The translations under genes were made by a program, and so were the position numbers. Below, piece after piece: positions 15,888 to 63,441 of a DNA stretch of 64,000 bases. Under the pieces are notes generated by a model, which saw only the letters and a program-made list of their open reading frames with translations, made no database searches and was not told the DNA's origin. The stretch spans positions 640,001-704,000 of the forward strand of contig CAWGMA010000003.1 in the NCBI GenBank assembly GCA_963823555.1. The letters are read 5' to 3'. Each line of letters begins with the position of its first letter. Position 1 is the first letter of the stretch. This DNA comes from Candidatus Eiseniibacteriota bacterium. Its GTDB lineage: Bacteria; Eisenbacteria; RBG-16-71-46; CAVPCR01.

Positions 15888-17096
15888 ATGTGCAGCAGCT
15901 ACAAAGTTGCGATGGCCATGGCTTCTTTGGTGGTCGCCGGCGCCGCCCAGGGCAGCACCTGGACTGTCCCCGATGAATTCGTGACCATCCAGGCGGCCGT
16001 GGACTTCGCCGCAAGCGGCGATACGGTGCTCGTTCGCCCCGGAACCTACGTCGAGACCGTTCTTCTCCTCGGCAAGTCGCTGCGGATCGCTTCCCTGGCG
16101 GGTCCCGCCACGACGATCATCGACGGCAGCGCCCCGACGCGACCGGACACGCTAAGTGTCTTGTGCGCGATCGGCCCACTCGAGCTTGATCTCGAGGGCT
16201 TCACCATCCGCAACGGCCTGGAAGGAACGACGATCGAGGGTGGTGGCGGCGACTCCGGGGGAGGAATCGCTCTCTACGGCGTGGACGGCAGGCTCAAAGA
16301 CTGCGTTGTCGAGCACAACTTCTGTCCTGGCTCGGGCGGTGGCATCTACCTCGTGGGCTCCTCGGTCACGATCGCTGACTGCACCATTCGGGACAACGAG
16401 TGCTTCTCGAACGGCGGCGGTATCGACGCGGTCGTCTGCTCGCCGACGATCGAGCGGTGCATCGTGGCGAACAACGGCACCGAGTCGACCAACTCGGGTG
16501 GGGGAATCGGAGTCTACTTCGGGTCGCCGGTGATCCGTGACTGCGAGATCACCGGCAACCGCGGTCGCTCTGGATCGGGTCTCGGGTTCGAGGCCACTTC
16601 GAGCCCGACCATCACGCGATGCCTGATCGCAGGGAACAGCAACGGGGTCGACAACCAGTCCGTGGGCGGCGGCATCTCGGTCGGCGAGGGCAACGCTCGC
16701 ATCGAGCAGTGCACCATCGTTGGAAACCGGGGCTACCTGGGGGCGGGCGTCCATGCGAGCGCACCCACAAGCGCGAGGGTCACGCGGTCGATCGTTGCCT
16801 TCAACCTGGGCGGACCAGGAGTATCGTGCCCGGGCACGGTCACCTTCGAGTGCTGTGACGTGTTCGGCAACGAGGACAGCGACGACATCTGTGGAACCGA
16901 CCTCGGCAGCAACTTCTCCCTCGACCCCTTCTTCTGTGCGGACTACTCGATCGCCGAGTCCTCGCCCTGTGCGCCCGCCAACGCGCCGGTTGGGTGCGGG
17001 CTGATCGGGGCCCGCGATGTGGGCTGTACTGGGGCAATCGAAGCCAGCACCTGGGGCCGCATCAAGGCGCGATTGTCCGTCCCGAAAACTCCGTAG
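15888..17096 (+). CDS. Secreted right-handed beta-helix protein with TWG tail (last codons come from an IS end)
   Basis: VPDEFVTIQAAVDFAASGDTVLVRPGTY, GGGI repeats, SPCAPANAPVGCGLIGA, AIEASTWGRIKAR. Start codon uncertain. Confidence 0.88.
   Translation: MCSSYKVAMAMASLVVAGAAQGSTWTVPDEFVTIQAAVDFAASGDTVLVRPGTYVETVLLLGKSLRIASLAGPATTIIDGSAPTRPDTLSVLCAIGPLELDLEGFTIRNGLEGTTIEGGGGDSGGGIALYGVDGRLKDCVVEHNFCPGSGGGIYLVGSSVTIADCTIRDNECFSNGGGIDAVVCSPTIERCIVANNGTESTNSGGGIGVYFGSPVIRDCEITGNRGRSGSGLGFEATSSPTITRCLIAGNSNGVDNQSVGGGISVGEGNARIEQCTIVGNRGYLGAGVHASAPTSARVTRSIVAFNLGGPGVSCPGTVTFECCDVFGNEDSDDICGTDLGSNFSLDPFFCADYSIAESSPCAPANAPVGCGLIGARDVGCTGAIEASTWGRIKARLSVPKTP
17074..17095 (+). repeat. Isolated IS481-like end
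   Basis: TGTCCGTCCCGAAAACTCCGTA is identical to 14452-14473. Confidence 0.85.
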
Positions 17097-42702: not shown

Positions 42703-45700
42703 CTACTTCGTCATCACCAGCTTGCGGTGCTCGCTGAGACCATCCGCCTTGAGCTGCGCATAGTAGACCGCCGATGGCAGCCGCCGCCCACCCTCATCGC
42801 GGCCATCCCATGCCGCCGCGTGCCAGCCCGCCTCCTGCCACACATCATCGAGGAGCAGGCGCACCAGGCGGCCCTGGGTGTCGTGTACGGCGAGTCGCAC
42901 GTGCCCCGCCCGCGGTAGCGTGTAGCTGAACGTCGTGGCTGGGTTGAACGGGTTGGGCTGGACCTGAAGAGCAAGCCCGGCTCCAGGCGCTCCGGTTCCC
43001 GGAGCGGGGCTCTGCTCCTCCACCCCCGTGCCGCCGCCCGCCAGGCGCAGGTCCATCTCCTGGAGCCCATTGTCAGGCAGCGTCAGCCATGGCGAGCGAG
43101 GGCAGAAGGGATCGCCCGTGAGGAACCGCAGGCGCCAGTGATAGCGCTCGCCGGAAATCAGCCCGGATGCCGTTTCCGTGAGCAGAACGAAGCTGCCTCC
43201 GGTGCTCAGGGGCGTACCAGTATCCGCCCAGTTGCCAAGCACCGTTCCGGCGCCATCGAAGGGCGTGCCGTAGAGCTCGATCTCGTACTCCATCCGCACC
43301 TGTCCGCGTCCCATCGGGGTGCGCCCGCGTGCGCCCAGGGCGAAGCCGCTCTCGGTGTTGGACATTCCGAGGGCGGCGATCGGTGACGACAGGTCGCTGT
43401 GCCACTGAACGGGGGTGCGAGGCAGTCCACGGCTTTCGTTGCCAAAGAAGAGGTAGGCGCGTCCCTCTTCGTCCAGCCCGTGGTGGTAGTAACGGGCTCC
43501 GGCCAGCACGTCGGAGAATCCATCGCCATTCGCATCGCCGCCTGCGGCAACTGCGTACCCTAGCTCTGCATTGTTCTGATCACCTTCGATGATCCAGTTG
43601 GCGACGCTGGACGTCAGCCCTGAACTGGAGCCCAGCCAAACGCCGATGGCGCCCGCCCCCGGTTCGCCGGGACTATCATGCAGCGGCGCGCCAGCCAGAA
43701 CGTCGCTGTAGCCGTCATTGTTGACGTCCCCAGCCGACGATACTGCGGCGCCAAGCCAGGCCGCCTCCTCGACCAGCGCGGAGCTCCAGTCGGCCCCGGA
43801 TGGATCATGGCTGACGGGTGGCGAGGCATCGCCATACCAGACGAACACCTTTCCGCCATAGGCAGCGGGGTTGTCGTAGCCGGGCGCTCCGATCAGCACA
43901 TCGCTGAAACCGTCACCATTGACATCGCCGGCTCCCGCCACCGCATAGCCCATCATCGCATGGTTCAGATTGCCGTCGACGTACCACCACGGCGCGCCTG
44001 TCTCGATACCGGTCGGCGTACCGATGAACAGGCTGGCGCGTCCCTCCCAGTTCTCGGGAATATCAGCCCGCGGCGCGCCGATCACCACGTCGCTCAGGCC
44101 ATCACCGTTCACGTCGCCGGCTGAAGCGATGCCGTAGCCGAACTGCGACTCCGCATAGTCGCCATCCTTGAACCAGTTGCTTGAGATGGGTGGTCCCAGG
44201 GAGGATCCGTAATAGCCGAAGACGGCGCCATCCTCGGTCTGGTCGTGCGTGTAGGTGGGCGCGCCCACCAGGACGTCGGCGTAGCCGTCACCGTTCACGT
44301 CTCCTGCTCCCGCCACGGCACGGCCGAAGTCGGCGCCCTCCTGGCCGCCGTAGGCGCTCCAGGAGGCAGTGGACGGGTTACCGTTGGGAATGCCGCCGGG
44401 TAGGCTCAGCCAGATGAAGGCCGCTCCCTCCGCGGTGAATGTGTGCGTGTAGTCGCTGGCGCCGGCGATGACATCGGTATATCCGTTGCCGTCGACATCT
44501 CCTGCCTTCGCCACAGAGATGCCCAACCTGGCGCCAGCCTGATTACTCTCGGCAAACCAGATGGGCAGCGCCGTGAGGCCGAGCCGCGATCCGAGGAAGA
44601 CGAACACGACTCCCTCGTCCGTCTGGCCGTTGTCGTAGAAGGGAGCGCCGACCGCGACATCGGAGAAACCGTCGCCGTTGACGTCCCCGATGCCTGCGAG
44701 GGACCAGCCGAAGCGCGCCTCGACCTGCTCGCTCTCGATGACCCAGCCCGGCTGCCAGCGCGGGCCGTAGGAGCCGCCGAGGTAACAGAAGGCCAGGCCC
44801 TCATCGATCTGAGGATGATCGTAGAGATCGGAGCCGACGAGCAGGTCGCTGTAGCCATCGCCGTTCACATCGCCTGCGGTCGCCACCGAGATCCCGAAAT
44901 GGGCCTCGGCCTGGTCGGATTCCTTGATCCAGATCGGGGAAGTCGACAGACCAGCCCACGATCCAAGGTGGACCCATGCGCGACCCTCCTCGGACTGGCC
45001 ATTGGTGTGCTGTGGCGCGCCGATCAAGATATCCGCGTAACCGTCGCCATTGGCGTCGCCTGCGGTCGCCACCGACATGCCGTACTGAGAACCGGCCTGT
45101 GTGCCATCGAGAACGACGGCAGGTTCGGGGAGGACACCGGTTTCCGATCCCGGATAGAGGAGCACGCGTCCCTCGGCGCCGCCGACCGTGTAGTACGGAG
45201 CACCGACCAAAACGTCGCTGTAGCCGTCCCCGTCGACGTCACCGGCGGTCGAGACGCAATGAGCAAACCAGGAATCGACGCCGTCGTCATAAGCGGACCA
45301 CATCTCGCCGCCGAGACCTCCCGGAGAGCCGTGGTAGACCTTGGCGTAGCCCGGATCGTTCGTAATCCAGATGTCCGGCTCGTTGCCGATGATGGCATCG
45401 GCATAGCCGTCGCCGTTGACGTCACCGGCGGTGGCGACGCAGTGCCCGAAATGGTCCCACTGGCGCTCGCCGTGGGCCGACCAGGCGATCGAGTGCGAGA
45501 GCCCCCCAGCCCCCCCGTGGAATACATAGGCCATGCCATCCTGGGAGAGGCTGAAGTCGTGTAGATCAGCTCCGATGATCACGTCGTCGTAGCCGTCGCC
45601 GTTGACATCGCCGGCGGTGGCCACCGAGACGCCGAAATCAGCGCCTACCTGCTCGCCTTCCTCAATCCAGTCGGCGCTTCCGATGATGCCGTCTTCCGAT

Positions 45701-46866
45701 CCGTAGTAGACATAGGCGCGGCCGCAATCCGCCAGGTCACCATCGTAGAACTTGGCACCGATGATGATGTCGTCGTAGCCGTCGCCGTTCACATCGCCGG
45801 CGGTGGCCACTGACCAACCGAAGAAGGCGTTCTGCTGATTGCTTTCATTGTGCCAGGCGGAGCTCGTTGATAATCCGGCGGATGAACCCATGTAGACGCG
45901 GGCACAGCCCTCGAAGAAGGATCCGCCATCATACCAGGGAGCTCCCACGATGACATCGCTGAAGCCGTCGCCGTCGACGTCGCCCGCGGTCGCCACGGAG
46001 TGACCGTAGAGCGAGCCGGCGAAGTTGATCTCGCCTGTCCAGCTCGGTACGCTGAGGATGGGGTCGATGGTGATTGGGTAGCGAGCGAACTCGTCATCGA
46101 TGCTGAGGCGAATCCCGGAATCGGTGAGCTCGAGCGCGCAGACGAGTTCCTCCCCCGACGCATCGTAGGCGTGCAGGTCGGCATAACGCAGCAGGCAGGG
46201 GGCGACGATGTCGTCGGCTCTTGACCGGTCGTCGTTCACCGCCTCGTAGTCGATGCCGCTCCCGTCATCGGTGAGTCGCCCCTCGAGATGGCTCACCACC
46301 ACGCCGTCGATGATGACGGGGCCGACGCCAGCGGGTCGGGTGTCGATCGTGAACCCCTGCTCCACTCCGGCCGGACCGTTCCCGTACCACTCGACCAGAC
46401 CCGCGTGACGATAGGTGACGCGGATGGCGTCAAGGCAGGGATCGACGGGAGGAAGCGGCGCCAGCGCCTGAGGGCGTCCCCAGGCTGCCGTGTGCCAGGA
46501 CCAGTTCCAGTCATCGCTTCCGGGCTCGCGTGGTTCAACCGCGATGCCGCCGGTCCGGAAGTAGGTGCGCAGGTTATGAGCGCGGTTGGGGGCCTGGAGG
46601 CCCGCATGGCTCTCGCTGGGGTGGTACTCGGCCTCCGTTAACCCTCGTATCACAAGTTCCCACCATGAGTCGTCGGCGCCAGCTGGGAGTTTCGACGAGT
46701 CAGACTTGGAGAGGGCGATGGCTGGTAGCGGATTGCCGGGTTGAACCCTGTCCGATCCCGACATGGGAAGCGAAGCCAGCAACACGAAGCCAGCGACGAT
46801 GAGTAACGTGGTGGCCGATATCCAGGCGCCGGGAGTGCAGTGTGGGAAGCTCGACTGGGGACGCAT
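42703..46866 (-). CDS. Large secreted FG-GAP (integrin-alpha-like) repeat protein with FlgD-type domain
   Basis: 14 GD[VA][ND]xDG-type repeats counted. PNPFNP...WDGRD tail. GGAGGTGG RBS. Confidence 0.93.
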   Translation of the reverse strand: MRPQSSFPHCTPGAWISATTLLIVAGFVLLASLPMSGSDRVQPGNPLPAIALSKSDSSKLPAGADDSWWELVIRGLTEAEYHPSESHAGLQAPNRAHNLRTYFRTGGIAVEPREPGSDDWNWSWHTAAWGRPQALAPLPPVDPCLDAIRVTYRHAGLVEWYGNGPAGVEQGFTIDTRPAGVGPVIIDGVVVSHLEGRLTDDGSGIDYEAVNDDRSRADDIVAPCLLRYADLHAYDASGEELVCALELTDSGIRLSIDDEFARYPITIDPILSVPSWTGEINFAGSLYGHSVATAGDVDGDGFSDVIVGAPWYDGGSFFEGCARVYMGSSAGLSTSSAWHNESNQQNAFFGWSVATAGDVNGDGYDDIIIGAKFYDGDLADCGRAYVYYGSEDGIIGSADWIEEGEQVGADFGVSVATAGDVNGDGYDDVIIGADLHDFSLSQDGMAYVFHGGAGGLSHSIAWSAHGERQWDHFGHCVATAGDVNGDGYADAIIGNEPDIWITNDPGYAKVYHGSPGGLGGEMWSAYDDGVDSWFAHCVSTAGDVDGDGYSDVLVGAPYYTVGGAEGRVLLYPGSETGVLPEPAVVLDGTQAGSQYGMSVATAGDANGDGYADILIGAPQHTNGQSEEGRAWVHLGSWAGLSTSPIWIKESDQAEAHFGISVATAGDVNGDGYSDLLVGSDLYDHPQIDEGLAFCYLGGSYGPRWQPGWVIESEQVEARFGWSLAGIGDVNGDGFSDVAVGAPFYDNGQTDEGVVFVFLGSRLGLTALPIWFAESNQAGARLGISVAKAGDVDGNGYTDVIAGASDYTHTFTAEGAAFIWLSLPGGIPNGNPSTASWSAYGGQEGADFGRAVAGAGDVNGDGYADVLVGAPTYTHDQTEDGAVFGYYGSSLGPPISSNWFKDGDYAESQFGYGIASAGDVNGDGLSDVVIGAPRADIPENWEGRASLFIGTPTGIETGAPWWYVDGNLNHAMMGYAVAGAGDVNGDGFSDVLIGAPGYDNPAAYGGKVFVWYGDASPPVSHDPSGADWSSALVEEAAWLGAAVSSAGDVNNDGYSDVLAGAPLHDSPGEPGAGAIGVWLGSSSGLTSSVANWIIEGDQNNAELGYAVAAGGDANGDGFSDVLAGARYYHHGLDEEGRAYLFFGNESRGLPRTPVQWHSDLSSPIAALGMSNTESGFALGARGRTPMGRGQVRMEYEIELYGTPFDGAGTVLGNWADTGTPLSTGGSFVLLTETASGLISGERYHWRLRFLTGDPFCPRSPWLTLPDNGLQEMDLRLAGGGTGVEEQSPAPGTGAPGAGLALQVQPNPFNPATTFSYTLPRAGHVRLAVHDTQGRLVRLLLDDVWQEAGWHAAAWDGRDEGGRRLPSAVYYAQLKADGLSEHRKLVMTK

Positions 46867-47124
46867 AGCTCCACCTCCATGATCGAAGCTCAAGCTGGCT
46901 GCGTCAGAGGGAAAGCCTGCCGACGGAGCTCAGTTCGTCCAGAAAGTAGCGAGCGCTTGGGACCGCTTCCACTTGCCGAACGGTCCTCCAGGCATGATAT
47001 CAATGAAGACACCTGTTCTCAGCTGCAAGCGACACGTGTGAATCTACAATTCTCATTGCAGATACGTCATGTGTCAGCACAACAGAGTCCTGGAAGGAGC
47101 GGCCGGCAGCGTACTCAACATGCC

Positions 47125-48265: not shown

Positions 48266-49075
48266 ATGAACCCCCGACGGATCGCATTCCTCGGAGCTCT
48301 CATTGTCGCACTAACGAGTCTCTCAGTAACGGCTTACGCGAGCGGCGTGCTCTTCGACAACGGTGTCATGGTTGCCAACCTCGATCCCGGCAACCTCGCC
48401 AATCGCGGCTGTGGCGTTGCCTTCGATGGCACCTACTACTGGGCGGGTGAGGCCGGTACCTCGAGCGGCAACACGCTCAATCAGTACGATGCCGGCGGCG
48501 CCCTTCTGAATGCCTACCAGAGCGGTGTCGATCATCGTAGCATCTTCACTGATGGCGCCAACGATCTCTATGGGATGCGGTTTGGGGCCGGCGAACTCGT
48601 ACGTTACATGGGCGGTGTCCCGTCGCCCGTTTACACCCTGAATCCGAACTCACCCGACAGCCAGTCCGAACACGGGCTACGCACTTCGAACAACTCCCTC
48701 TACGGCAATGATGCCGGCACGATCTACGTCTACGACTTCGCTACCGGAATGCGCACGTCTTCGTTCAGCCTGTCCGGATACGCGGCAACCTATCCGGCCG
48801 ACGTTCAGCTTGCGGTTGCCAACGGGGCTGCCGACTACCTCCTGACCTACGATGACGCCGGCAATGTGGCGGCCTGGGACTTCGCCGGCAACCAGGTTGG
48901 CCTGTGTGCGATCGGCCTCAACACGTTCGATCAGATCTTCTCGTTCAGCTTCGCGAACGGGCTCGTCTGGATCGAAACGGCACGGAACAGCACCTGGAAC
49001 GGGTACGACATCGGGCTCGGCATGGCGACGGCCGTTGAGCCCACCACCTGGGGGGCGATCAAGGCCCGATTCTAG
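48266..49075 (+). CDS. Secreted beta-rich protein with TWG tail
   Basis: GAGGAGG RBS, signal peptide, ends AVEPTTWGAIKARF. Confidence 0.85.
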   Translation: MNPRRIAFLGALIVALTSLSVTAYASGVLFDNGVMVANLDPGNLANRGCGVAFDGTYYWAGEAGTSSGNTLNQYDAGGALLNAYQSGVDHRSIFTDGANDLYGMRFGAGELVRYMGGVPSPVYTLNPNSPDSQSEHGLRTSNNSLYGNDAGTIYVYDFATGMRTSSFSLSGYAATYPADVQLAVANGAADYLLTYDDAGNVAAWDFAGNQVGLCAIGLNTFDQIFSFSFANGLVWIETARNSTWNGYDIGLGMATAVEPTTWGAIKARF

Positions 49076-49254
49076 GGGGCTGCGGCAGCCCGCATCCTCG
49101 ATGCGGTCGCCGGCAGCAGGTACTGAAAGTCTGTCATTGACGTGCGGCCCCGGCGGAAGGCTCCGCCGGGGCCCCGTGCTTATGAGAGACATGACAATTG
49201 TCTCCGCCAACCTTCGTGTGTATGGTCAGAGGAGTACCCCAGCAGGAGGACTCA

Positions 49255-50028
49255 ATGGATAGGAAGACCGTCATCCCGGCTCTGGTCGTCTTGCTGCTCG
49301 TTGCAGCCGTAGTCGTTTATTACCAGTTCTTCCGAGATCGAGAGCAGGCGGGAGTGACGACGACCGAGGAGTTCGCCGGCATCGAGCACGAGCCCGTGGC
49401 GGAAGGACGGAAGATCGAGTACATCGATGTCGAGCTGGACAAGAGCGACGAGCTGGTTCGTAGGCTCGCCGGAGGACTGTCGTCGCGCCCGGAGCTGGCC
49501 CGCTGGTTGCTTTCAGAGCAGCTGATCAGGAGCTTCGTCGCCGCGGCGGAGAACATCGCCGCCGGCCACAGTCCCCGCGCCCAGGTCCCGTTCTTCACGC
49601 CGAATGGGCCTTTTGCCGTCATCGAGGAGGACGGGGAGACCTTCGCCGATCCCGGGAGCTTCCGGCGCTATGACCTCTTTGCCGATGTCTTCACCTCGCT
49701 GGACACCGAGGGAACCATCACCTTGTACCGGCAGCTGACGCCGGCTATCAGCGAAGCCTACAAGGAGCTCGGTCATGCGGACGGTCGCTTCCATCCGACG
49801 CTGGAGCGGGCCATCGCAGAGCTCCTGCGAGTGCCGGTGGTGGAGGAGAGGATCTGGCTCGAGCCGCAGCTTGTCACTTACGAGCTGGTCGATCCTGGGC
49901 TGGAGGGCCTGAGCGCAGCGCAGAAGCACCTCCTTCGCATGGGGCCGGACAACGTGCGGTCGATCCAGGCCAAGCTCCGGGAGATCAGCCAGCACCCGGA
50001 CTTCCGAGCGGCCAGCGTTCGGCCGTAA
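49255..50028 (+). CDS. DUF3014-like protein
   Basis: N-terminal TM, SFRRYD, EAYKELG, LEGLSAAQKHLLRMGPDN. Confidence 0.85.
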   Translation: MDRKTVIPALVVLLLVAAVVVYYQFFRDREQAGVTTTEEFAGIEHEPVAEGRKIEYIDVELDKSDELVRRLAGGLSSRPELARWLLSEQLIRSFVAAAENIAAGHSPRAQVPFFTPNGPFAVIEEDGETFADPGSFRRYDLFADVFTSLDTEGTITLYRQLTPAISEAYKELGHADGRFHPTLERAIAELLRVPVVEERIWLEPQLVTYELVDPGLEGLSAAQKHLLRMGPDNVRSIQAKLREISQHPDFRAASVRP

Positions 50029-50091
50029 GGGCGGCGGGAACCCGATCTTCAGATCATGCGTCCTGCTGTCCCTGCGGGATGAGATCGAAAA

Positions 50092-50129
50092 CGAAGATCC
50101 CCAGCCGGCGGGCCGGCTGGGGATCCTCG
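50092..50129 (-). terminator. Intrinsic terminator
   Basis: GATCCCCAGCCGGC/GCCGGCTGGGGATC stem with a T-rich tail on the minus strand, between convergent genes. Confidence 0.75.
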
Positions 50130-50161
50130 TGTCGTTCGCTGCTGCGAATCGAGCGGGCCGA

Positions 50162-50971
50162 TTACCTGTTGTAGAGGCCCTTGATGTGCCCCCAAGTGGT
50201 CGGCTCGGTCGACGTCGCGCCGCCGCCGGTCCATGCCGCTGCCGAAAAGGTCCCGCTCCCGGTGAACGGGGAGGGAAGGGTTCCGACCTGGGAACCCGTG
50301 GCGGCATCGAAGATGTAGAAGTTGGCCTGCGTGGTGTTGGGACCGTCGGTCACGTAGTAGGCCAGGCCGGCGTTCATCGCGAGCCCGTCGATGTCGGTCT
50401 CGCCCGCCGGGTAGGGGGCGAGGAAGGTCGTCGACTGGGCCACCGTGTCGATCTCGTAGAGGCCGCGACCGGTCGATGGGGCGTCGGTCAGGCCATAGAG
50501 GTTCCCGTTGGTGGCGTCAACATCGAGACCGCCGAAATCGAACGTGCTCGGATAGACGTAGACCTGAGTGGCAATGAGCGTGACAGGATCGATCTCGTAG
50601 ACCGCCTCGGTCGCGATGTTCCGGGTGCCGAGGAGCATCCCATTGCGGAAACCCAGGGCGACGAAATTGACGGTCGCCGAGTTGAACATCATCGTCCCGA
50701 GCGTGGTCGGGGTCAGGCCACCCATGCTGAAAGGCGAGCTGTAGAGCGTTGACCCGTTGTTCCAGTAGAGGGTATTCGTGGTGCCGTCGTACGCCATGCC
50801 CCAGGGCTTGGCGTCAGACGTGCTCGCCGCGTAGAGCGATGTAGCGACACCGGTGTTGACGTCGACGTACCAGATGGTGGCGGTACCCGACTGGTCGTTG
50901 CCGACAACCAACTGGGCCTGCGCGCTGGTCGTAATGAGCGCCAAGGCCGCGGTCAGCAATATCCACTTCAT
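50162..50971 (-). CDS. Secreted beta-propeller-like protein with TWG tail
   Basis: Signal peptide ending AQA, YEID repeats, ends STEPTTWGHIKGLYNR. Confidence 0.87.
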   Translation of the reverse strand: MKWILLTAALALITTSAQAQLVVGNDQSGTATIWYVDVNTGVATSLYAASTSDAKPWGMAYDGTTNTLYWNNGSTLYSSPFSMGGLTPTTLGTMMFNSATVNFVALGFRNGMLLGTRNIATEAVYEIDPVTLIATQVYVYPSTFDFGGLDVDATNGNLYGLTDAPSTGRGLYEIDTVAQSTTFLAPYPAGETDIDGLAMNAGLAYYVTDGPNTTQANFYIFDAATGSQVGTLPSPFTGSGTFSAAAWTGGGATSTEPTTWGHIKGLYNR

Positions 50972-51212
50972 TGAGGCATTCCTCCCGTTGCTGATGTCTG
51001 GCAGAACCAAGCTGCGATCGACACGCGGTGGTGGCCGTTCCTTACCACCGGCGCCAATTCTCTACGAAACAACATCTTAGCAGAAATCCAGGTCGACGTC
51101 AATCAGCCCGCCTGAATCGTGTGGGCAATCAGGATGGTCCATGGTCGCCGGCTGCTAGAATCCTGCCCGCGGACCGCGACAACAACGCCGTTACCCTTCT
51201 AGGGAGGACATC

Positions 51213-51845
51213 ATGCGCAAGTCAGTTACCATCCTCGCGCTCATCATGTTGGTTGCGGCCGGCGCCCAGGCCGACGTCGTCATGGTCGAGGCGAGAGGGC
51301 AAGTCTTTTTCAATTCCATTCCGACCCCGCCGCTGGGCAACATCAGCTCGGGGGAGCAAGTTGTGATGTCGTTCACCGTCGATTCGAACAACTTCGTTGA
51401 AGGTATCCCAGGTGATACGCGCGGCTATGAGATCGATCAGCCATCGTTCTCGCTCGGGTTCTCGTCCGGCCTGGACATGGGGTTGATCAGTCCGTTCCCG
51501 GCGGGGCAGACGCCCTATTTCACGCTCGTCGAGGGGTTCCCGGTCAGCGACGGATTCTTCGTGTCCACGAGCCCGATCTCGCCGGGCGGTGTTCCCCTGG
51601 CCCAGGATCCTCACAACTTCAATCTGGATCTCGGTTATGTAGGCAGCACGCTCGGGTCGCTGGACATCCTGGACGCGCAGGGGACCTACGACTTCACCGG
51701 GCTGACCAGGTTCGCCTTCAACATCTGGCGGGTTTTCCCGGACAACGTGGTCCTGGACATCGACTTCGCGCAGATGAGCATCACGGCCGAACTGCTCGCG
51801 GTCGATCCATCGAGCTGGGGTGCGGTGAAAGTGCTGTTCAAGTAA
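51213..51845 (+). CDS. Secreted protein with SWG tail
   Basis: GGAGG RBS, signal peptide ending AQA, ends AVDPSSWGAVKVLFK. Confidence 0.87.
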   Translation: MRKSVTILALIMLVAAGAQADVVMVEARGQVFFNSIPTPPLGNISSGEQVVMSFTVDSNNFVEGIPGDTRGYEIDQPSFSLGFSSGLDMGLISPFPAGQTPYFTLVEGFPVSDGFFVSTSPISPGGVPLAQDPHNFNLDLGYVGSTLGSLDILDAQGTYDFTGLTRFAFNIWRVFPDNVVLDIDFAQMSITAELLAVDPSSWGAVKVLFK

Positions 51846-51943: not shown

Positions 51944-53242
51944 CTACCCCGTCAGCCAGTCGCACAGCTGATCGATCGCTGTGAGCACGTTGCGACAGTG
52001 GTTCTCGAGGAAGGACTGGCCGAGGGCTCGATCGGCGGGTGTCACCTCGGCAGCGGCCAGCGCGTGCGCTCCATCGAAATCGACGTAGGCCAGGCGCGCG
52101 GTCAACTCGTCGCTTCGCCGACCGAAGGCGCTCCCGGGGAGCATGGCCACGCCCGTGTCCTGGAAGATCGCCTCGCAAAGGCTCAGACTATCCCGCACTC
52201 CACGCTGGGCAAGCTTGTCGCGGAAGGGGGCAAAGTCAGGGAAGAGGTAGAAGGCTCCCTTCGGTTTCTCGATGTCAAGGCCGATGTCGTTCAGCCGGCG
52301 GGTGATCCAGCGGGCAAGAGCTGCGAGAACGCGGCGCGAGTTCCAGAGATAGCGCTCGATGGATATGCCACCCTGGAAGGCCCTGACTGCTGCGTACTGG
52401 ATCGGGGCGCTGGTTGTCGTGTAGGTCTCGCTGGCGGCGGTGGCCATCGACTCGAGGAGCCAGTTCAGGATCGGTGGAAAGGCGAAAGCGCCTAGCCGCC
52501 AGCCACCGGCCCCGCACCACTTGCTGAGCCCGGTCGAGATGATGGTCCCCTCGGGGTAGAAGCGAGCGATCGATACGTGCTGGCCCTTGTGGTGTAGACC
52601 ACCATAGATCTCGTCGGAGAGCAGGACGACGCGGTGTTGCCGCGCCACTCGGGCCAGGTCTTGTAGCTCATCCGCCTTGTAGGTGCCGCCGGTAGGATTG
52701 CTGGGATAGTTGAGGACGACGATCCGCGGCCGGCCCCGGTCCTGTTCGCAGTGCTTGGCGAGCTGATCCGGAGTCAGGCGCCAGCCGCTGGTCCTCTCGG
52801 TGTGAAGCCATTTCACCTGGCGGCCGATGATGTGCGCCTGAGGCGCGTAGGAAACCCAGGCGGGCGTGGGGATGACGATGTCTCCGTAATAGACAAGCTG
52901 TAGCAGGAACATCAGCTCTTTCGAACCGGGTCCCACCAGGACCTGATCACCGCTCAGGCAAACTCCCTGCATGCGGCAATGGTAGTCGGCGATGGCCAGC
53001 CGAAGTGCCTCGAGCCCCTTGACCGGAAGGTAGGCCTTCTGATGGGCGTTGGCCTTGAGCTCTTCAACCACCGGCTGCGGCACCGGGAAGGGGGATTGCC
53101 CGAGACCGAGCTTGTAGACCTGTTTTCCCTCTTTGCGCAAGCGGTCGCAGCGCTCGTTGATGGCGACCGTGGCCGACGGCAGCAGCCCGCGCACGTTGAG
53201 GTTGAGATTGACGTCGAGGGCCTTTGCTCGGACCTGTCCCAT
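51944..53242 (-). CDS. Class I/II PLP-dependent aminotransferase
   Basis: NYPSNPTG, SDEIY, GLSKWCGAGGWRLG. Confidence 0.93.
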   Translation of the reverse strand: MGQVRAKALDVNLNLNVRGLLPSATVAINERCDRLRKEGKQVYKLGLGQSPFPVPQPVVEELKANAHQKAYLPVKGLEALRLAIADYHCRMQGVCLSGDQVLVGPGSKELMFLLQLVYYGDIVIPTPAWVSYAPQAHIIGRQVKWLHTERTSGWRLTPDQLAKHCEQDRGRPRIVVLNYPSNPTGGTYKADELQDLARVARQHRVVLLSDEIYGGLHHKGQHVSIARFYPEGTIISTGLSKWCGAGGWRLGAFAFPPILNWLLESMATAASETYTTTSAPIQYAAVRAFQGGISIERYLWNSRRVLAALARWITRRLNDIGLDIEKPKGAFYLFPDFAPFRDKLAQRGVRDSLSLCEAIFQDTGVAMLPGSAFGRRSDELTARLAYVDFDGAHALAAAEVTPADRALGQSFLENHCRNVLTAIDQLCDWLTG

Positions 53243-62718: not shown

Positions 62719-63441
62719 TTACTGGAAGATGGCCTTCAAGGCTCCCCAGGTGCCGCTCTCGACCGGGGTGGAGCAGTCGCTGTCGGCCGTGTCGTAGGCG
62801 TTATCCCCATCGTTGTCGAGGCCCTCGGGATCCCCAGCAAAGTCCTCGCTCGTGTTCGCGTTGCAGGCATCATCGGGCATGGCCGGGTGACCGGTGCCCG
62901 GATTGGCGTAGAAGCTCGGCAGGACATTCTCGCCCACGGGCGTGTAGCTTGCTGGGTTGGCATCGAGATGGCATTCGGCGCAGATCGTTGCTCCCGTATT
63001 GTAGTGATGCTGTCTGAGGCCGGCACCGTATCCGGTGCGTCCGGCGCCGACTTCTGGATTGCCGGCGACGTTGTCCTCCGCCCGGCCATGGCAGCCGACG
63101 CAGCCGATCGCGTCCAGGCCGCTGCCGCCGTCCGACGAATTCAAGATCACCGGGAACGTGTCTCCACCGCCATGACAGGTGTTGCAGTCGCTGTTCAGCA
63201 TGGTGGTCCGGTGCAGGTTGTGGAGATTCCCCCAGTTCATGCCGTCGGTGGCAGAGATGTATGAAGTCGCTCGGAAGTTGCCATGGCAGGCGCCGCAGTT
63301 GGTCGCGTCCCCGCCGTTCTGCGAGTACTGCCTGTAGGCAAGCCCTGGCTGACTCCAAAGGCAGAGAGTGGCGAGGGTGATAAGGCCAGTCGTGATGACC
63401 ACGAGGGATCGGGTTCCCGGGATCGAGTACCTCTTGTCCAT
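62719..63441 (-). CDS. Secreted tetraheme cytochrome c with TWG tail
   Basis: CGACH, CNTCH, CVGCH, CAECH. DNDGD Ca-binding-like motif. Ends PVESGTWGALKAIFQ. Confidence 0.88.
   Translation of the reverse strand: MDKRYSIPGTRSLVVITTGLITLATLCLWSQPGLAYRQYSQNGGDATNCGACHGNFRATSYISATDGMNWGNLHNLHRTTMLNSDCNTCHGGGDTFPVILNSSDGGSGLDAIGCVGCHGRAEDNVAGNPEVGAGRTGYGAGLRQHHYNTGATICAECHLDANPASYTPVGENVLPSFYANPGTGHPAMPDDACNANTSEDFAGDPEGLDNDGDNAYDTADSDCSTPVESGTWGALKAIFQ

Follow-up and report, generated by a model that had tools for sequence, protein, structure and literature searches.

Two described classes of C-terminal signal come closest to the element considered here. In type IX secretion systems (T9SS), Sec-exported proteins of unrelated folds end in a type A C-terminal domain (CTD; TIGR04183/PF18962 Por_Secre_tail, or PF13860-type FlgD_ig in the genome discussed below), and the determined cleavage sites of PorU follow the pattern X/(GSA)(VLI), with T/ATEQI, D/SVEDI and N/GVEDI among the examples (PMC4560394). 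According to PMC11285876, secretion in P. gingivalis needs the L(beta3beta4) loop of the CTD, the last CTD strand holds a conserved lysine, and the targeting signal of HBP35 lies within the last 22 residues. In Prevotella intermedia, a species with PorK, PorM and PorN, functional short CTDs of 40–51 aa are three-stranded, retain motifs B, D and E, have Ile at +2 after the cut, and show that cleavage and glycosylation can survive the shortening of a T9SS signal (PMC11969387). The PEP-CTERM/exosortase system (TIGR02595, PF07589; PF09721) uses a short signal on many small exported proteins, in which the PEP motif is followed by a transmembrane helix and a basic cluster. The subject of this work is the TWG tail, a peptide of about 15 residues that ends five unrelated exported proteins in a 64,000-nt stretch of DNA (the window) from a Candidatus Eiseniibacteriota genome (G000; 4.62 Mb, 92.5% complete).

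The TWG tail is real and is an uncatalogued variant of C-terminal protein sorting. A preliminary description, made from the DNA letters, had proposed an export or anchoring signal, and this is well supported by the terminal position of the tail, its occurrence on signal-peptide proteins, its detachment from the protein body in an AlphaFold model, and its exchange with T9SS-type CTDs and PEP-CTERM signals, as far as function can be read from sequences and models. It is very probable that the tail is a sorting signal, and probable, with less confidence, that it is read by a T9SS that lacks its motor. The overall reading that is cautiously preferred here is of a portable C-terminal peptide that serves as a minimal sorting signal for SprA/PorV/PorU lineages without the GldLM/PorLM motor.

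The tail in the window and in the genome

All five window proteins named in the preliminary description carry the motif, and the positions given there are the gene starts. Two are exported proteins of 269 aa, one on the forward strand (48266–49075) that has no family match and whose tail (49028–49075) ends …TAVEPTTWGAIKARF, and one on the reverse strand (50162–50971; tail 50162–50215), most close homologues of which end in PEP-CTERM instead. The homologues of an exported all-beta protein of 210 aa (51213–51845, forward strand; tail 51795–51845) end in TWG or PEP-CTERM, and a right-handed beta-helix protein of 402 aa (15888–17096, forward strand; tail 17031–17096) has paralogues with the FlgD-Ig/T9SS CTD. 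The fifth is a multiheme cytochrome c-like protein of 240 aa with four CxxCH heme motifs (62719–63441, reverse strand; tail 62719–62769); a second tail-bearing protein with CxxCH, in two motifs, is encoded elsewhere in the genome (contig C2, 452442–453368). The five bodies (one beta-helix, one four-heme cytochrome-like, three without family) have no mutual BLAST match at E ≤ 1e-6, and all five N-termini are signal-peptide-like by a simple heuristic. The motif is at or near the stop, with Trp 7–13 residues before it. The consensus first proposed fits in general, but its final [FY] is true of only four of the five, the 15888 protein having Leu at that position and a short extension (…KARLSVPKTP).

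AlphaFold models the body of the 51213 protein with high confidence and leaves the tail unpacked, at a pLDDT of about 45, its last residues forming a short helix. Together with the exchanges described below, this makes the tail a separate module and not part of a fold. A Foldseek search with the same protein returned nothing significant. The amphipathic character suggested for the tail is weakly supported by the short helix and not by the helical hydrophobic moment, 0.29 against 0.33 ± 0.18 for other C-termini. Elsewhere in the window, a protein without the tail, an FG-GAP repeat protein (42703–46893, reverse strand), has a FlgD-Ig/T9SS-type CTD after a T-G-V-E-E joint and provided the seed for the CTD census, and an aminotransferase-like gene (by eye; 51944–53242, reverse strand) has its closest relatives across many phyla, at 58–69% identity.

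Across G000, 108 reading frames end in the tail when scored at 25 bits or more with a position-specific scoring matrix (PSSM) trained on 95 terminal copies, the consensus being T[AP]VEP[AST]TWGx[IV]Kxx[YF]R. Since 8 of these frames are short fragments and contig ends share a few copies, the frames represent about 100 distinct genes. A hidden Markov model (HMM) built from 45 tails, as had been suggested, gave 109 matches, close to the PSSM count. Internal PSSM hits are limited to one above 25 bits and a second at 18.4, both in proteins that also end in the tail, and five shuffled proteomes gave no tail hits (best score 16.1). Since the PSSM learned from terminal copies, the consensus of the preliminary description is the independent check of position: over the six frames of the genome it matches 86 times no more than 40 residues from a stop and never internally, with the last 31 residues making up only 8% of positions in called genes. 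The recurrence is beyond what chance would give.

Signal-peptide-like starts were counted with a home-made gene caller and a simple heuristic. With only the best start considered, 68 of 100 tail proteins have one, against 373 of 2401 other genes of comparable size; when the best three starts are allowed, the counts are 79 and 531 (16–22% of the other genes). Among the CTD proteins, 136–162 of 253 have such a start. The tail passengers fall into 69 body clusters and are small, at most 496 aa (CTD proteins have a median of 633 aa and reach 2170 aa). The tail has a net charge of about +2 and an aromatic residue near its end, and tolerates C-terminal extensions that reach about 20 residues. In the 45 tail-bearing proteins scanned it is matched by no Pfam or NCBIfam model; as a PDB sequence query it gave no hits at E ≤ 10, and an Atlas search gave no usable hit. 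Three adjacent lipoprotein-like tail proteins are encoded at contig C1, 1650359–1653512, two of them with a duplicated domain and a TWG copy after each unit, and a paralogue of this trio (C2, 173417–174361) ends just before the tail.

A cargo-type model of the tail matches 145 of 151 genomes of the phylum, with 1 to at least 57 copies each, no more than 59 candidates having been scored in any one genome. Where genomes of one family (f7) have only 1–4 tails, the protein that retains the tail is a conserved secreted one that looks lamin-tail-like by eye (loci L174–L178). Among 50 of 80 named genomes from other groups, many tail hits were found only in a Candidatus Krumholzibacteriia bin (26), together with one weak hit each in three Ignavibacteria.

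Exchange with CTD and PEP-CTERM signals

The FlgD-Ig/T9SS-type CTD ends 253 G000 proteins, and none has both the CTD and the tail (0 against 108 tail frames). A CTD-bearing paralogue was found for 38 of the 108 tail bodies, and in 25 of these, drawn from 8 of the 69 body clusters, the common part reaches as far as the joint in the tail protein and the CTD protein alike. Exchange with PEP-CTERM is seen in homologues with 60–80% identity to two of the window proteins: the best 120 homologues of the 50162 protein comprise 82 with a PEP-like tail, 18 with TWG and 20 that end otherwise, and those of the 51213 protein comprise 74 with TWG, 31 PEP-like and 15 scored as 'other' by regular expression, most of which are PEP variants. 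In the 50162 family a single origin of TWG is compatible with a quick tree of 114 of the 120 rows, from which trimming dropped 6 of the 18 TWG rows.

The joint that opens the tail, a small residue, Val or Ile and an acidic residue, partly resembles that of a PorU cut site, and a similar joint, [TSVIP][AGP][VI]x, occurs in 92 of 183 CTD linkers versus 13–25 of 183 control windows. The Val/Ile is conserved in 96 of 108 tails, and is preceded by A (45), P (38), S (3), T (3) or G (2). A conserved tail Lys lies 4–7, mostly 5–6, residues from the basic C-terminus, as in the last CTD strand. The tail and the type A CTD are also alike in being C-terminal on Sec-exported proteins of unrelated folds in SprA/PorV/PorU genomes, and in being swapped on the same bodies. 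The tail differs from the CTD, a beta-sandwich of 70–100 residues, in its length of about 15 residues, the absence of an HMM match, its invariant Trp-Gly, the frequent Pro at the joint, its predicted helix, and passengers of at most about 500 aa. The features by which type A CTDs are defined, a beta-sandwich of 40–100 residues with motifs B, D and E and matches to TIGR04183, PF18962 or PF13860, were not found in it, and unlike the short P. intermedia CTDs it lacks motifs B and D (PMC11969387).

PEP-CTERM signals and the tail share passenger families, and both contain Glu-Pro-Ser/Ala/Thr. The tail has neither a transmembrane helix nor an Arg cluster, only 7–13 residues follow its Trp in the window proteins, and it matches neither TIGR02595 nor PF07589. 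Descent of the tail from PEP-CTERM, considered on the strength of the common EP[AST], was rejected, PEP tails scoring -8 bits or less on the tail PSSM, and use of the tail as the joint that precedes a CTD was rejected because it was seen in none of the 253 CTD proteins. Exosortase searches of G000 gave no hits with PF09721 and none with two custom profiles at E ≤ 5; a TIGR02595 search was negative as well, although it was also silent in control genomes. The preliminary description had separated the tail from LPXTG, PEP-CTERM and GlyGly-CTERM signals, and this distinction holds: the LPXTG motif and the transmembrane helix that precedes its basic tail are both absent, no NCBIfam GlyGly-CTERM match or transmembrane segment was found, PEP tails fall below zero on the tail PSSM, and G000 has no detected exosortase. 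The tail falls outside both the type A CTD and the PEP-CTERM class, whose defining features it fails to show, but it likely works as they do.

Exosortases are present in 108 of the 151 genomes of the phylum and were not found in G000, nor in G137, G083 or six genomes of family f9, which have 23 to at least 56 tails. Because none was found in G000 or in these other tail-rich genomes, an exosortase is not required. A divergent exosortase was considered as reader of the tail and rejected, since it occurs in some members of the phylum and was not found in G000; a short divergent exosortase/archaeosortase-like family is present in 13 of 14 phylum loci examined (L158–L171).

A T9SS without its motor and a single-copy carrier

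G000 encodes SprA and PorU at scores over the cut-off, with PorU adjoining PorV, and six PorV-family genes over the cut-off (seven paralogues were examined). Custom profiles for GldL, GldM and GldN gave no hit in this 92.5% complete genome and GldK gave only partial matches below the cut-off, so that the PorKLMN/GldKLMN core usual for a T9SS host was not found. Among about 20 C25-family matches, two PorU-type proteins have a His/Cys dyad (C1, 349495–353904 and C1, 701034–705347), and the second lies beside a GWxTD-domain lipoprotein. The second PorU-like protein, with its catalytic dyad, and one PorV paralogue whose best model is PorV2 recall the putative PorU2/PorV2 system (NCBIfam NF052324, NF052325), but the two fall well short of the cut-offs of those models, and across the phylum the second PorU shows no relation to tail number. 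As a dedicated reader of the tail this PorU was rejected: at E ≤ 1e-30, where a miss means not found with that query, it was found in 25 of 32 f7 genomes (0–4 tails) and in none of 12 f15 genomes (up to at least 57 tails).

Two loci of G000 may hold further parts of such a system. At C1, 705584–715022 (L210), porU and porV are followed by unannotated exported genes, by a gene whose 1151-aa product has a weak match to SprA, and by an Omp85-family gene, and these are candidate parts of a motorless T9SS. At C1, 1791949–1803133 (L214), an operon combines a PorV-family gene that is fused to an Ig-like domain with genes for TPR proteins, ExbB/TolQ, two ExbD-like proteins and TonB; this might energise a T9SS that has no GldLM in another way.

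Outside the phylum of G000 the end of the tail is found on a single-copy exported protein of about 132 aa, here called the carrier, composed of a signal peptide, an Fn3-like domain and the near-invariant end TWGSIKAMFR. The weak cargo-model hits in three Ignavibacteria are this protein. It occurs once each in 20 of the 50 named genomes (12 Ignavibacteria, 3 Calditrichaceae, 1 Rhodothermales, 2 'Bacteroidetes' and 2 other bacteria), and in a further phylum 102 of 114 genomes have it at full length. The W, G, K and F of its tail are invariant over 60 sequences whose bodies are about 30% identical. A 30-position profile of the carrier tail matched 450 clusters among 1.84 billion representatives, and in the 150 clusters listed every match ends within one residue of the C-terminus. 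The Fn3-like domain also precedes the CTD in other proteins (L206). Foldseek returned generic Fn3/Ig matches to the carrier, an Atlas search returned only 'hypothetical protein' clusters, and Pfam had no match to 29 carrier tails. Published literature yielded no description of either tail or carrier, in a search that largely left subscription papers uncovered and excluded supplements; the two papers that came up for a TWG motif concern splicing.

Among 121 genomes sampled from one phylum, 43 of the 64 with SprA and without GldM have the carrier, as do none of 31 with both and none of 26 without SprA, and whole-protein and tail-only models identify the same 43 genomes. This sample is structured by lineage and amounts to a few independent contrasts, not 121. 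Phylogenetic profiling against T9SS genes had been proposed in the preliminary description, and it places the carrier only in SprA-positive, GldM-negative genomes of the sample. Cargo tails of G000 share 6–8 of 10 residues with the carrier decamer in 79 of 108 cases, and by sequence the two tails are likely homologous. The carrier is probably the ancestral bearer of the tail and a resident part of the motorless T9SS. Only partial-domain hits to it, in 3 of 151 genomes, were found in the phylum of G000, which seems to have lost it and to have given the tail to some hundred small passengers. The genes beside the carrier encode MATE, SpoIID, Maf, PyrR, adenylate kinase and M23-like proteins. Because it adjoins pyrR or pyrB/C in 9 of 36 loci, a single-domain tail protein of G000 (cohesin-like by eye; C1, 377798–378346) that lies directly upstream of pyrR-pyrB-pyrC may be its positional counterpart. 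A complex prediction for the carrier with the PorU-adjacent PorV of the same genome (G344) scored 0.01 and gives no answer either way.

Proposed route and alternative readings

In the preferred reading, a passenger would cross the inner membrane via Sec and fold in the periplasm, where its WGxIKxxF end would dock in a pocket that is conserved on the T9SS module of the outer membrane. The candidate receptors are SprA, a PorV-family barrel or a further adaptor. The passenger would then be handed on to the surface, where cleavage at the T|AVE joint and attachment of the body to a glycolipid may be the work of a PorU-type transpeptidase. This cutting and linking is the weakest step and is put forward tentatively. 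Recognition by a motorless T9SS module is likely and cleavage is uncertain, the main rival being a docking peptide that is not cleaved. A more far-reaching version is speculative and rather doubtful. In it, TWGxIKxxF would be the own peptide-sized address of the motorless T9SS in several FCB-related groups, and the carrier, its normal bearer, would belong to the translocon cycle as a part so far overlooked, with a role that falls to the PorKLMN motor in Bacteroidia. The phylum of G000 would have made from the peptide a second cargo signal that turns horizontally acquired PEP-CTERM proteins into T9SS substrates, and on this version no shorter signal for the export of folded proteins across the outer membrane would be known.

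Several observations weigh against recognition by a T9SS, or against parts of the proposed route. Pro occupies the putative P1' position in 38 of 96 tails and Gly in 2, whereas CTD joints have 87 G, 61 A and 39 P, and a Pro-rich, Gly-poor P1' fits PorU cleavage poorly. The tail has no folded beta-sandwich or L(beta3beta4) loop, and AlphaFold predicts a short helix (pLDDT about 45–70) and not strands. A few tail-bearing proteins are lipoprotein-like. The profile of the carrier follows taxonomy and its kin are not independent; 21 genomes with SprA and without GldM lack it, so that it is not essential to a motorless T9SS, and the four of these that were checked retain many PorV paralogues. No conserved T9SS gene neighbours of the carrier were found in about 60 loci. 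The link between cargo and carrier tails rests on the last ten residues, the upstream parts being different; carrier tails reach a median of only 16 bits on the cargo PSSM, and the carrier-tail model detected no cargo tails in five genomes at E ≤ 0.001.

Some of these points would suit an uncleaved docking peptide, which would bind a conserved envelope protein, either a component of the T9SS that faces the periplasm or a scaffold at the surface, and hold the passenger there with no transpeptidation and perhaps no crossing of the outer membrane. The Pro at the putative cut site and the helical prediction are in keeping with it, as are the decamer, near-invariant across phyla although the body is at about 30% identity, and the internal copies after each unit of the two duplicated lipoprotein-like proteins, with one paralogue tail-less. 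The one-for-one exchange of the tail on the same bodies with CTD and PEP-CTERM, two cleaved surface-anchoring signals, and its strictly terminal position (150 of 150 among the carrier matches listed) speak against docking, which is considered unlikely, if the most serious of the alternatives. It is less probable still that the SprA link reflects shared ancestry and that the tail is handled by a sorting enzyme outside the T9SS (a divergent exosortase, an archaeosortase or a rhomboid-type protease) or inserts itself into the membrane surface. The passengers are typical of PEP-CTERM cargo and exosortases are common in the phylum, but the tail has no transmembrane segment, PEP tails do not score on its PSSM, its hydrophobic moment is ordinary, no exosortase was found in the tail-rich genomes named above (rhomboid proteases were not searched for), and the carrier is missing from all 26 SprA-negative genomes of the 121-genome sample.

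A tag for a periplasmic C-terminal protease or chaperone, presumably of the Prc/CtpA or PDZ type, would serve turnover or folding and not location. The free C-terminus of the tail, its near-terminal aromatic residue, net positive charge and restriction to small passengers would be expected of such a tag; the tolerance of extensions of about 20 residues would not, and both the exchange with CTD and PEP-CTERM and the restriction of the carrier to SprA-positive genomes would be left unexplained, so that this reading is very improbable. No paper was found on how folded proteins pass SprA in lineages without the PorLM/GldLM motor, and the carrier, which tracks SprA and avoids GldM, offers one gene to knock out for this question. 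Rhodothermus, Ignavibacterium, Melioribacter and Caldithrix are cultured members of groups that have the carrier. An export or anchoring tag of 15 residues would also be a useful display tool and is easily modelled as a new HMM. For the uncultured phyla, the tail singles out in each genome about 100 proteins, most of them without annotation, that are probably at the surface, the multiheme cytochrome included, and if it does confer surface display, the protein encoded at 62719–63441 would be an extracellular multiheme cytochrome.

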